Origin: Escherichia coli
GTDB lineage: Bacteria; Pseudomonadota; Gammaproteobacteria; Enterobacterales; Enterobacteriaceae
Reading direction: 5' to 3' (one strand)
Length of the DNA: 64,000 nucleotides
Assembly: GCF_003790525.1 (NCBI RefSeq)
Contig: NZ_CP033635.1
The position numbers were made by a program, and so were the translations under genes. The notes beneath the pieces were generated by a model that was not told the origin of the DNA, did no database searches, and was given only the letters and a program-made list of their open reading frames with translations. Positions 1-64,000 of this stretch are shown here, piece by piece. Each line of letters begins with the position of its first letter. Positions within the stretch are counted from its first letter, which is position 1.

Positions 1-1376
1 CATGGATTGATGTGGTAAACCCTGCAACAGAGGCTGTCATTTCCCGCATTCCCGATGGTCAGGCCGAGGATGTCCGTAAGGCAATCGATGCAGCAGAACG
101 TGCACAACCAGAATGGGAAGCGTTGCCTGCTATTGAACGCGCCAGTTGGTTGCGCAAAATCTCCGCCGGGATCCGCAAACGCGCCAGCGAAATCAGTGCG
201 CTGATTGTTGAAGAAGGGGGCAAGATCCAGCAGCTGGCTGAAGTCGAAGTGGCTTTTACTGCGGACTATATCGATTACATGGCGGAGTGGGCACGGCGTT
301 ATGAAGGCGAGATTATTCAAAGCGATCGTCCAGGAGAAAATATTCTTCTGTTTAAACGTGCGCTTGGCGTGACTACCGGCATTCTGCCGTGGAACTTCCC
401 GTTCTTCCTCATTGCCCGCAAAATGGCCCCCGCTCTTTTGACCGGTAATACCATCGTCATTAAACCCAGTGAATTTACGCCAAACAATGCGATTGCATTC
501 GCCAAAATTGTCGATGAAATAGGCCTTCCGCGCGGCGTGTTTAACCTTGTTCTGGGGCGTGGTGAAACCGTTGGGCAAGAACTGGCGGGTAACCCAAAGG
601 TCGCAATGGTCAGTATGACAGGCAGCGTCTCTGCAGGTGAAAAGATTATGGCGACTGCGGCGAAAAACATCACCAAAGTGTGCCTGGAATTGGGGGGTAA
701 AGCACCGGCTATCGTAATGGACGATGCCGATCTTGAACTGGCAGTCAAAGCCATCGTTGATTCACGCGTTATTAATAGTGGGCAAGTGTGTAACTGTGCA
801 GAACGTGTTTATGTACAGAAAGGCATTTATGATCAGTTTGTCAATCGGCTGGGTGAAGCGTTGCAGGCGGTTCAATTTGGTAACCCCGCTGAACGCAACG
901 ACATTGCGATGGGGCCGTTGATTAACGCCGCGGCGCTGGAAAGGGTCGAGCAAAAAGTGGCGCGCGCAGTAGAAGAAGGGGCGAGAGTGGCGTTGGGTGG
1001 CAAAGCGGTAGAGGGGAAAGGATATTATTATCCGCCGACATTGCTGCTGGATGTTCGCCAGGAAATGTCGATTATGCATGAGGAAACCTTTGGCCCGGTT
1101 CTGCCGGTGGTCGCATTTGATACGCTGGAAGAGGCTATCTCAATGGCGAATGATAGTGATTACGGCCTGACCTCATCAATCTATACCCAAAATCTGAACG
1201 TCGCGATGAAAGCCATTAACGGGCTGAAGTTTGGTGAAACTTACATCAACCGTGAAAACTTCGAAGCTATGCAAGGCTTCCACGCCGGATGGCGTAAATC
1301 TGGTATTGGCGGCGCAGATGGTAAACATGGCCTGCATGAATATCTGCAGACCCAGGTGGTTTATTTACAGTCTTAA
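1..1376 (+). CDS. aldA: Aldehyde dehydrogenase A (lactaldehyde/glycolaldehyde dehydrogenase), 3' portion; 5' end lies upstream of the window
   Basis: ORF 12..1376 translation matches AldA C-terminal ~455 aa (catalytic Cys/Glu region, ends VVYLQS); reading frame is open to window start. Confidence 0.95.
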   Translation, partial: WIDVVNPATEAVISRIPDGQAEDVRKAIDAAERAQPEWEALPAIERASWLRKISAGIRKRASEISALIVEEGGKIQQLAEVEVAFTADYIDYMAEWARRYEGEIIQSDRPGENILLFKRALGVTTGILPWNFPFFLIARKMAPALLTGNTIVIKPSEFTPNNAIAFAKIVDEIGLPRGVFNLVLGRGETVGQELAGNPKVAMVSMTGSVSAGEKIMATAAKNITKVCLELGGKAPAIVMDDADLELAVKAIVDSRVINSGQVCNCAERVYVQKGIYDQFVNRLGEALQAVQFGNPAERNDIAMGPLINAAALERVEQKVARAVEEGARVALGGKAVEGKGYYYPPTLLLDVRQEMSIMHEETFGPVLPVVAFDTLEEAISMANDSDYGLTSSIYTQNLNVAMKAINGLKFGETYINRENFEAMQGFHAGWRKSGIGGADGKHGLHEYLQTQVVYLQS

Positions 1377-1386
1377 TGAGTGGAAG

Positions 1387-1409
1387 AGGCGGAGGTTTTT
1401 CCTCCGCCT
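1387..1409. terminator. Hairpin shared by convergent aldA and gapC (aggcggagg-ttttt-cctccgcct)
   Basis: Perfect 9-bp inverted repeat with T5 loop/run located between the two converging stop codons. Confidence 0.6.
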
Positions 1410-1416
1410 GTGTGCG

Positions 1417-2418
1417 TCAGAGTTTAGCGAATTTTTCGAGGGTGCGAATGAGCTGTGTGACGAAGCCATATTCGTTATCGTACCAGGCGACCGTTTTCAC
1501 CAGTTGTAAATCGCCCACGGCGGTAATTTCCGTTTGCGTGGCATCAAACACCGAACCGAAATGGCTGCCAATGATATCGGAAGAGACTATTTCTTCATCG
1601 GTATAACCAAATGACTCGTTATTGGTGGTTGCTTGTTTAAGTGCGTTATTCACCTCTTCGGCAGTCACTTTTTTTCCGAGAATGGACACCAGCTCAGTGA
1701 CCGAACCTGTTTTCACCGGCACGCGTTGCGCATGACCTTTCAGTTTGCCGCTCAGTTCCGGGATCACCAGACCAATGGCTTTTGCCGCACCTGTAGTGTG
1801 GGGAATGATATTTTCTGCCGCTGCACGTGAAGCGCGTAGATCTTTACCTCGCGGACCATCCACCAGTGACTGAGTGCCGGTATAGGCATGAATGGTCGTC
1901 ATCGTGCCGACTTCTATTCCGAAACTGTCGTGCAAGGCTTTGGCCATCGGTGCAAGACAGTTAGTGGTGCATGACGCCACGGAAACAATGGTGTCGTTGC
2001 CATCCAGTGTGTCGTCATTGACGTTATAAACGATGGTTTTCATTTCACCGGCAGGGGCGGAAATCAACACCTTCTTCGCACCAGCATCAAGGTGCGCCTG
2101 CGATTTCTCGGCGGAGGTATAAAAGCCAGTACATTCGACAATGATTTCTGCGCCTTTCGCTTTCCATGGAATATTTTTAGCCTCTTTTTCGGCGTAAACC
2201 GCGATACTTTTTCCATCAACGATAAGTGAATCTTCCGTAAAATCAACGCTCCAGGGGAACGGTCCGTAGTTTGAATCATGTTTCAACAGGTAGGCGAGAA
2301 TTTTTGGGGAAGTGAGATCATTAATAGCAACAATGTCTATGTTGCTTTTGACTTCAAGTAATCGACGCAACACCAGTCGACCGATACGACCAAAACCGTT
2401 AATACCAACTTTACTCAT
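1417..2418 (-). CDS. gapC: Glyceraldehyde-3-phosphate dehydrogenase C, intact 333-aa reading frame
   Basis: ORF translation has GAPDH hallmarks (NGFGRIGR Rossmann motif, SCTTNCLAP active site); uninterrupted here. Confidence 0.9.
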
Positions 2419-2606
2419 GGTCTTCTCCTGTCAGGAACGTTCGGATGAAAATTGATCCTTTCCAGGCTTAGACCAGGATGGCGGGATGGGCAATCTACAT
2501 TCTTGCCGTGAAACGTAACGTACTGAAAACGGGTGAACAATATTTAATGAAATTTTAAGAAAAGCTCGTTATGTTAACGGAAAATTATGTTAAAGCAGGA
2601 AATGTT

Positions 2607-62076: not shown

Positions 62077-62961
62077 ATGGCTATGGAAACGCAGGACATT
62101 ATCAAAAGGTCCGCAACTAACTCCATCACGCCGCCTTCTCAGGTGCGTGATTACAAAGCAGAAGTCGCGAAACTTATCGACGTTTCCACCTGTATCGGTT
62201 GTAAAGCCTGTCAGGTGGCGTGTTCGGAGTGGAACGACATCCGTGATGAAGTGGGGCACTGCGTCGGGGTTTACGATAACCCCGCCGATCTGAGCGCCAA
62301 GTCCTGGACTGTGATGCGCTTTAGCGAAACCGAACAGAACGGCAAGCTGGAGTGGCTGATCCGTAAAGACGGCTGTATGCACTGTGAAGATCCGGGCTGC
62401 CTGAAGGCGTGCCCGTCTGCTGGTGCAATCATTCAGTACGCTAACGGGATTGTCGATTTCCAGTCGGAAAACTGCATCGGCTGTGGTTACTGCATTGCCG
62501 GGTGTCCGTTTAATATTCCGCGCCTCAACAAAGAGGATAACCGGGTATATAAATGCACGCTCTGCGTCGATCGCGTCAGCGTCGGCCAGGAACCGGCTTG
62601 TGTGAAAACCTGTCCGACCGGGGCTATCCACTTCGGCACCAAGAAGGAGATGCTGGAGCTGGCGGAACAGCGCGTGGCGAAACTGAAAGCGCGTGGTTAC
62701 GAACATGCTGGCGTCTACAACCCGGAAGGGGTCGGTGGTACGCACGTCATGTACGTGTTGCATCACGCCGATCAGCCGGAGCTGTATCACGGTCTGCCGA
62801 AAGATCCGAAGATCGACACATCGGTGAACTTGTGGAAAGGCGCGTTGAAACCGCTGGCAGCGGCTGGCTTTATCGCCACTTTTGCCGGGTTGATTTTCCA
62901 CTACATCGGTATTGGCCCGAATAAGGAAGTGGACGATGACGAGGAGGAGCATCATGAGTAA
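62077..62961 (+). CDS. fdnH: Formate dehydrogenase-N beta subunit (4x[4Fe-4S], C-terminal TM anchor)
   Basis: 294-aa ORF with four ferredoxin-like Cys motifs ([41 protein letters not shown]...CVKTCP). Confidence 0.95.
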
Positions 62962-63607
62962 GTCGAAAATGATTGTGCGCACCAAGTTTATTGATCGCGC
63001 CTGTCACTGGACCGTGGTGATTTGCTTCTTCCTGGTGGCGCTGTCCGGGATTTCGTTCTTCTTCCCGACGCTGCAATGGCTGACGCAAACCTTCGGTACG
63101 CCGCAGATGGGACGCATTTTGCACCCGTTCTTCGGCATTGCGATTTTCGTCGCGCTGATGTTTATGTTTGTGCGTTTTGTGCATCACAACATCCCGGATA
63201 AGAAAGATATTCCGTGGCTGTTGAACATTGTCGAAGTATTAAAAGGCAATGAGCACAAAGTGGCGGATGTTGGTAAGTACAACGCCGGGCAGAAGATGAT
63301 GTTCTGGTCGATCATGAGCATGATTTTCGTGCTGCTGGTGACCGGGGTGATTATCTGGCGTCCGTACTTTGCGCAGTACTTCCCGATGCAGGTTGTTCGC
63401 TACAGCCTGCTGATTCACGCGGCTGCGGGTATCATCCTGATCCACGCCATCCTGATCCATATGTATATGGCATTCTGGGTGAAAGGATCGATTAAAGGGA
63501 TGATCGAAGGGAAGGTGAGCCGTCGCTGGGCGAAGAAACACCATCCGCGCTGGTATCGTGAAATCGAGAAGGCAGAAGCGAAAAAAGAGAGTGAAGAAGG
63601 GATATAA
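62954..63607 (+). CDS. fdnI: Formate dehydrogenase-N gamma subunit (cytochrome b556)
   Basis: ORF 62912..63607; start at [19 protein letters not shown] (217 aa), 4 TM with haem-ligand His. Confidence 0.93.
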
Positions 63608-63630
63608 TCTCTTTTGAACTTTAAGCTGAA

Positions 63631-63659
63631 AATGGCGCTTTAAGAAGCGCCATTTTTTT
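63631..63659. terminator. Bidirectional terminator between fdnI and yddM (aatggcgc-tttaagaa-gcgccatt + T5)
   Basis: 8-bp perfect stem with flanking A/T runs on both strands. Confidence 0.7.
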
Positions 63660-63942
63660 ATTGCGTAACCAGACGGCGCAGTCGCGACACATCCACCGTT
63701 TTTTCAGCCTCTGCCAGGCTCCAGGCGTTTTGCAGATTCAGCCACATTTGCGGCGAACTGCCGATCACCACGGAAAGTTTAATTGCCATTTCTGGCGTCA
63801 AAGCTGCTTTTCCGGTCAGCAATCGGCTTGCCGTTGAGGGAGCAATTTCCATTGCTCTGGCAAACTCGCGCAGGCTGACATTAAGTTCGTCCAGTGATTC
63901 CTGAATAATGTCCCCCGGGCGGGGATGATTGGCCATTTTCAT
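63658..63942 (-). CDS. yddM: HTH-XRE DNA-binding protein, HigA-type antitoxin-like
   Basis: 94-aa ORF; HTH region [36 protein letters not shown]. Confidence 0.8.
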
Positions 63943-64000
63943 CAGTGTCTTTACTCTCAGTAGCGTTCCTTCACCAGGAGCACTATCATTATTGTTCCTT

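Follow-up and report, generated by a model that had tools for sequence, protein, structure and literature searches.

According to published tables, Escherichia coli SMS-3-5 is a water isolate of type O19:H34 that belongs to phylogroup F and sequence type (ST) 354, and the B strain REL606 belongs to phylogroup A and ST93 (PMC11537424, PMC9174282). In this study, we compared a 64-kb chromosomal stretch running from aldA to adhP (the window; GC content 49% across its whole length) with these two genomes and with that of K-12 MG1655. The window carries the insertion sequence (IS) IS4 in ydcO, an IS1 in a gene for a MASE5-GGDEF protein, an intact gapC, a full-length porin gene at the yddL position and, between yncG and pptA, an islet made up of the GGDEF gene and an alkyl/aryl-sulfatase gene. 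An initial annotation made from the letters of the sequence had listed these five features as departures from K-12, and all five are real. It had also guessed at a B-lineage strain. We propose instead that the window is, almost certainly, the aldA-adhP segment of a chromosome of the SMS-3-5/ST354 clone of phylogroup F, and that it comes from neither K-12 nor B.

This assignment is based on a megablast search of three overlapping parts of the window (1-25000, 25001-50000 and 42001-64000) against 5,426 complete E. coli genomes, in which SMS-3-5 (NC_010498.1) was the top match for each part, with 23 further genomes alongside; the listed sources of these 23 include humans, chickens, dogs, a pangolin, river water and surface water. 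The window corresponds to the reverse strand of SMS-3-5 positions 1699408-1762631 (read from 1762631 down to 1699408), and the 63,224 bp are identical except for a 776-bp insertion and two single nucleotide polymorphisms (SNPs), W235* in yddE and D66E in fdnG. In the direct comparison, positions 1-38853 show no mismatch, the 776 extra bp follow and the remaining 24,371 bp contain two mismatches. The parts searched separately gave the same picture, with 1-25000 matching at 100% in one piece, 25001-50000 at 100% in two pieces with 3% uncovered, and 42001-64000 identical apart from two mismatches. Over this right-hand 22 kb the top twelve genomes all score 40,616 bits, a value that agrees with two mismatches per genome, the number found in SMS-3-5. 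The mismatches are probably at the same two SNPs in every genome, and the SNPs therefore appear to be private to the window.

The junction between IS4 and ydcO points the same way. It is covered in exactly 24 of the 5,426 genomes, all within the SMS-3-5 group and none of them a K-12 strain, and it provides a clean marker of this group; these 24 are also the genomes that match other parts of the window at 100%. The features at this site are:

15169-16593, + strand: IS4, with its transposase gene at 15252-16580 (+), as placed by the RefSeq annotation, the ends and the target duplication
14867-15168, - strand: 3' fragment of ydcO (BenE-family transporter), severed by IS4; a partial pseudogene in RefSeq
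16594-17515, - strand: 5' fragment of ydcO, with the insertion at about codons 291-295 of 391 (K-12 numbering)
14867/14868: empty site of IS609, just 3' of the ydcO stop codon, from the K-12 alignment

IS4 elements are about 1.43 kb long, with 18-bp terminal inverted repeats, a 442-amino-acid DDE transposase and an 11-13-bp target duplication. The element in ydcO agrees with this description and is a member of the family: it is 1,425-1,426 bp long, one base being ambiguous, has the termini TAATGCCGATCAGTTAAG...CTTAACTGACTGGCATTA with inverted ends TAATGCC...GGCATTA, and contains a 442-codon open reading frame (ORF) annotated as IS4 transposase. It is flanked by an 11-12-bp duplication, (C)TGCAACGGCAG, at 15157-15168 and 16594-16605, which is confirmed by a 12-bp overlap between two K-12 alignment blocks at ydcO. 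Once IS4 and one copy of the duplication are taken out, ydcO reads through intact with nine amino acid differences from K-12 over 390 residues. IS4 thus entered ydcO by ordinary transposition, and is a clonal marker of the SMS-3-5 group. By its position it would truncate the YdcO transporter after about three quarters of its length, most likely creating a null allele. A second difference at this site had escaped the initial annotation. In K-12 and REL606, IS609 (yncK/insQ, TnpB-type) sits between ydcL and ydcO; in the window the site is precise and empty, positions 14867 and 14868 aligning to K-12 locus positions 14961 and 16710, which bracket the annotated IS609 (14962-16709).

With respect to the backbone, BLASTN alignment to MG1655 (NC_000913.3, 1488200-1556000) gave seven blocks on the same strand and in the same order, at 95.1-98.3% identity and with no inversions, so that the K-12-collinear gene order described in the initial annotation holds. 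This collinearity is what favours the idea that the window is from a K-12 derivative that has gained insertion sequences. We regard such an origin as virtually inconceivable, since the backbone is 97.1% identical over the 56 kb aligned, gapC is intact, IS609 and RhsE are absent and the porin gene is full length; none of four K-12 markers (the gapC pseudogene, IS609 at ydcL-ydcO, the RhsE remnant and the yddL remnant) is found in the window, and K-12 strains are missing from the 24 genomes with the IS4-ydcO junction. The initial annotation was thus right to call the genotype non-K-12: no K-12 derivative carries the junctions, and the best matches are SMS-3-5 and the 23 genomes at 100%. Its B-lineage guess fared differently. 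REL606 (NC_012967.1, 1457563-1527776, aligned and read through its annotation) has the same gene order as the window, an IS1 in the region and an intact gapC, the last being the only one of the five features that it shares. Its IS1, however, lies between gapC and cybB, its ydcO is intact and accompanied by IS609, its yddL is truncated, its leucine-rich repeat (LRR) gene is frameshifted, and the islet is replaced before pptA by yncH, vgrG, a full-length Rhs element, ydcD and ISAs1 remnants. With the islet query, BL21 Star(DE3) aligns over just 53 bp. Sequence identity to the window is 97.1% for REL606 and 100% for SMS-3-5, and a source of the REL606/BL21 type is therefore refuted. K-12 and REL606 are equally distant from the window, which fits two phylogroup A strains equidistant from a phylogroup F strain. 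The premise on which the guess was built, an IS1-rich genome with a single IS4, finds no support either: SMS-3-5 gives five places for the IS4 query, and is therefore not a single-IS4 genome, and a 25-kb query including IS1 matches it at no more than seven further places.

A closer question is whether the source could be SMS-3-5 itself, re-sequenced, sub-cultured or evolved in the laboratory, with the IS1 and the SNPs arising after the 2008 reference rather than in a separate natural isolate of ST354. The window differs from that reference by only one IS insertion, one nonsense and one missense change, a pattern typical of short-term evolution, and neither the D66E nor the IS1 allele was found in any other record. 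However, eleven other genomes tie with SMS-3-5 over the right-hand 22 kb, so that identity to SMS-3-5 does not single it out, while other members of the group score slightly lower there, as would be expected if they had a few private SNPs themselves. Moreover, the yddE stop codon recurs in several public runs that are independent of each other, which points to a sublineage that circulates or has been sampled more than once. We therefore consider this explanation unlikely, albeit one to be kept in mind; in either case the source is a member of the SMS-3-5 group outside the 5,426 complete RefSeq genomes.

Several points weigh against the assignment to the SMS-3-5/ST354 clone, or narrow it. The IS1 insertion in the GGDEF gene occurs in none of the 5,426 complete genomes, and the fdnG product with D66E is on record nowhere: its N-terminal 195 residues with E66 gave no entry, compared with 21,407 gene-position index blocks for the D66 form. 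The phylogroup and ST suggested for the window are taken from the SMS-3-5 literature, the typing loci lying outside the window. Sequence identity, junction structures and their distribution among genomes were read directly, whereas the proposal that ydcO and the GGDEF gene have lost their function comes from gene structure by itself.

The two point mutations, both of which had been missed by the initial annotation, lie in the following genes:

44379-45272, - strand: yddE (PhzF family) with W235*, C>T at 44569 (+ strand), codon 44568-44570
59017-62064, + strand: fdnG with D66E, T>A at 59214; the selenocysteine TGA is normal

W235* distinguishes the window from SMS-3-5 and apparently from the other best-matching complete genomes. 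The truncated 234-residue YddE is nevertheless found elsewhere, in Logan SRR25608274 (a 15-kb contig, seven samples), in SRR25608277 and in ENA ERZ27280762, with DNA that is 100% identical to the window; a literature search on these run accessions returned nothing relevant. REL606 carries an independent yddE stop (K189*), and yddE has therefore been inactivated repeatedly. In fdnG, the selenocysteine insertion sequence (SECIS) element is present at 59599-59657.

The 776 bp absent from SMS-3-5 are accounted for by IS1 and its target duplication, and the features concerned are:

38854-39621, - strand: IS1, 768 bp, insA and insB' frames both intact
38262-38853, - strand: 3' fragment of the MASE5-GGDEF gene, with the whole GGDEF domain and the GGEEF motif
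39622-40087, - strand: 5' fragment of the MASE5-GGDEF gene, with the insertion at codons 153-156 of 349, inside the membrane sensor domain

IS1 elements typically measure 768 bp, have terminal inverted repeats of about 23 bp and insA/insB' frames, and duplicate 8-9 bp of target. The element here conforms to the family in each respect, with an exact left inverted repeat (IRL) at 39599-39621, for which no chance match is expected, and the 8-bp duplication AAAAAATA at 38846-38853 and 39622-39629. In SMS-3-5 the corresponding site is empty and AAAAAATA occurs there once, and the IS1 copy is 99.5% identical to an IS1A-like copy in REL606. As both IS4 and IS1 are flanked by target duplications and have matching empty sites, both arrived by ordinary transposition, the IS1 insertion being private to the source strain. 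Only one record, CUVET16-394, covers the query spanning the IS1 junction; it was set aside as a different insertion, the GGDEF gene there being intact and the IS1 a few hundred bp away. The ORF fused across the IS1 end was also not on record in an exact protein look-up, a result that is weakly informative as short-read assemblies break at IS1.

The uninterrupted SMS-3-5 allele encodes 349 residues, with MASE5 at residues 9-190, GGDEF at 191-346 (PF00990, 1e-48) and GGEEF at residue 267; the canonical RxxD I-site five residues upstream of GGEEF is absent from it. The intact GG(D/E)EF active-site motif predicts a diguanylate cyclase. The start of the gene is ambiguous: the RefSeq start at 40087 gives 349 residues and an in-frame ATG 48 nt upstream (40135) gives 365, the latter being used in some database entries. 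An identification of the protein as DgcX was rejected, as DgcX is of the MASE4 type and prophage-associated, found at attB and beside prophage regions. The gene may correspond to one of the 'new' dgc genes of Povolotsky & Hengge (2016).

Since IS1 cuts the catalytic GGDEF domain off from the promoter, the start codon and the greater part of the membrane sensor domain, it would be expected to abolish the cyclase, and the interrupted gene is most likely a null allele. It could be argued that the GGDEF fragment, now without its sensor, is instead expressed from a promoter carried on IS1 or from a hybrid one, leading to deregulated synthesis of cyclic di-GMP (c-di-GMP), and an open frame does indeed begin at a TTG 14 nt within the IS1 end and continue across the entire GGDEF domain (38262-38867). 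However, no outward promoter-like site was found at the junction between IS1 and the GGDEF gene, the single IS1 match being the insA promoter in IRL at the opposite end, and the first ATG of the frame falls inside the GGDEF domain; for these reasons expression of an active fragment is very unlikely. An isolated GGDEF domain, furthermore, usually needs an N-terminal dimerising module for activity, which also counts against a sensor-less fragment.

The GGDEF gene is one half of the islet at the variable site between yncG and pptA. The second islet gene is:

40182-42158, - strand: alkyl/aryl-sulfatase, 658 amino acids

K-12 homology ends at the yncG stop codon (38259) and restarts at 42374, just before pptA. 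Between these points (38260-42373) the window has the GGDEF and sulfatase genes, and K-12 has yncH, rhsE', ydcD, yncO, yncI' and ydcC. The sulfatase contains a metallo-beta-lactamase fold (Lactamase_B) and the Alkyl_sulf_dimr and Alkyl_sulf_C domains, all above the Pfam cut-offs, and by this architecture would be assigned to the alkyl sulfatases of the metallo-beta-lactamase fold; its 90% protein cluster includes proteins of Citrobacter, E. albertii and E. whittamii. With the criterion that at least 80% of the GGDEF-sulfatase query be covered, the islet is present in 438 of the 5,426 genomes; genomes that lack it align, in the sampled rows, only to the end of the query nearest pptA, over about 50-370 bp. 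The initial annotation had described an islet in place of RhsE, which is correct in that K-12 genes are replaced in the window, but Rhs and the islet can occur together in other genomes. In CUVET16-394 (NZ_CP115330.1, 755627-765924) an Rhs core gene, a pentapeptide-repeat gene, IS1, an ISAs1 remnant and the GGDEF and sulfatase genes are followed by pptA. As in the window, the same pair adjoins pptA with an IS1 nearby; unlike in the window, the GGDEF gene is intact and the IS1 lies upstream, beside the ISAs1 remnant and the Rhs core gene. The match rows H55 and H57 likewise have RHS/VgrG and the sulfatase under one match. The description as alternative contents of one composite variable site therefore fits better, and this site may hold vgrG-Rhs modules, ISAs1 copies, the GGDEF and alkyl-sulfatase pair, or several of these together. 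The K-12 arrangement looks like a loss of the islet next to an ISAs1 copy (ydcC).

The two remaining features of the list, gapC and the porin, and a pair of LRR genes concern loci that have decayed in K-12:

1417-2418, - strand: gapC, an intact type I glyceraldehyde-3-phosphate dehydrogenase of 333 amino acids (RefSeq annotation, domain profiles)
56546-57646, - strand: general porin of 366 amino acids at the yddL position (Porin_1, 1e-134)
53798-55054, - strand: LRR gene 1, 418 amino acids, to which K-12 yddJ and most of yddK align
about 55117-56382, - strand: LRR ORF 2, 419-421 amino acids, of which K-12 keeps 326 bp only

GapC scores 447 bits against TIGR01534 (cut-off 367) and has both the Gp_dh_N and the Gp_dh_C domains; the K-12 pseudogene is disrupted by K39* and by the loss of 1 bp at nt 744. 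The porin spans the PF00267 profile from 1 to 337 of 337 and scores 495 bits against the NCBIfam 'porin OmpC' subfamily (cut-off 484), and is thus a full-length general porin, its locus being the yddL position and not ompC. It is full length in 1,111 of the 5,426 genomes, and another 3,156 have a partial match, which in the sampled rows is almost always the 278-284-bp yddL remnant. The 90% cluster of the porin also lists LepA/EF4 proteins of 603-644 amino acids (Roseburia) and has a 603-residue representative, which looks like a clustering or indexing artefact. K-12 yddL aligns to the first 284 bp of the porin gene only, K-12 lacking window positions 55825-57362, a gap that also spans the 5' part of the neighbouring LRR ORF. 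A second gap in K-12 (54857-55498 of the window) explains the yddJ/yddK remnants. The LRR pair had been overlooked in the initial annotation; the stretch that it occupies (53798-56382) has a GC content of 34%, compared with 49% for the window. For LRR ORF 2, RefSeq marks a 288-bp partial pseudogene (55498-55785), and gene calling on a Logan contig gives a 419-residue product.

Taken together, decay in K-12 or in phylogroup A makes the window look gene-rich: in K-12, gapC has a stop codon and a frameshift, IS609 sits beside ydcO, and two deletions have reduced the porin gene to its first 284 bp (yddL) and the two LRR genes to the remnants yddK and yddJ. A reading centred on K-12 can take this decay of K-12 itself for novelty in another strain, and counts of insertion sequences within one window cannot identify a lineage.

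Some further observations were made along the window. The spacer between fdnI and yddM (63608-63660), also missed previously, is shorter than in K-12, where it is about 320 bp longer (23992-24397 of K-12 locus L004), and than in REL606, where it is about 150 bp longer. An Rfam scan reported only the small RNA RydC (3148-3211), the hokB sok antitoxin RNA (3771-3922) and the SECIS element of fdnG, all at positions that agree with the K-12 annotation of rydC, the hokB/sokB locus and fdnG. Public collections contain exact matches to five intact proteins of the window; the LRR protein is on 917 contigs and each of the other four on 1,000 or more.

The sequence is already known, either from a published genome or as well-known variation among E. 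coli strains (K-12 pseudogenes, the Rhs/ISAs1 region, transposition of IS1 and IS4). What is new is the private IS1 insertion and the private missense SNP in fdnG; the yddE stop is absent from the best-matching complete genomes but present elsewhere in public data. The source strain could be recognised by the combination of IS1 in the GGDEF gene and D66E in fdnG, and on present evidence the value of these changes as strain fingerprints is all that they offer. It might be asked whether the three private changes are adaptive steps in an ST354 sublineage rather than neutral drift. This is improbable in our view; if it were true, loss of the cyclase could, for example, reduce c-di-GMP and favour motility or virulence at the expense of biofilm formation.

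When the window is set beside the known genomes, SMS-3-5 shares the IS4-ydcO junction, the intact gapC, the porin and LRR genes and the GGDEF-sulfatase islet, and differs in that it encodes the intact 349-residue GGDEF protein with no IS1 there and has neither W235* in yddE nor D66E in fdnG. Outside the SMS-3-5 group, IAI39 and CE10 are closest over the right-hand 22 kb including the porin and LRR region, at 99.2% identity; they differ from the window in having ydcO without IS4, their best IS4 copies being elsewhere, and no IS1 at the GGDEF site. AR_0013 and N32, which accompany IAI39 and CE10 in the match lists, align to 97% of the middle 25 kb, the sulfatase gene included, at 98.3% identity. 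K-12 MG1655 has the same gene order from aldA to adhP, but its gapC is a pseudogene, its ydcO is intact with IS609 next to it, the series yncH-rhsE'-ydcD-yncI'-ydcC precedes pptA, and yddJ, yddK and yddL are deletion remnants. The differences between the window and K-12 are therefore familiar strain-to-strain variation, plus one private IS1 insertion and two private point mutations.

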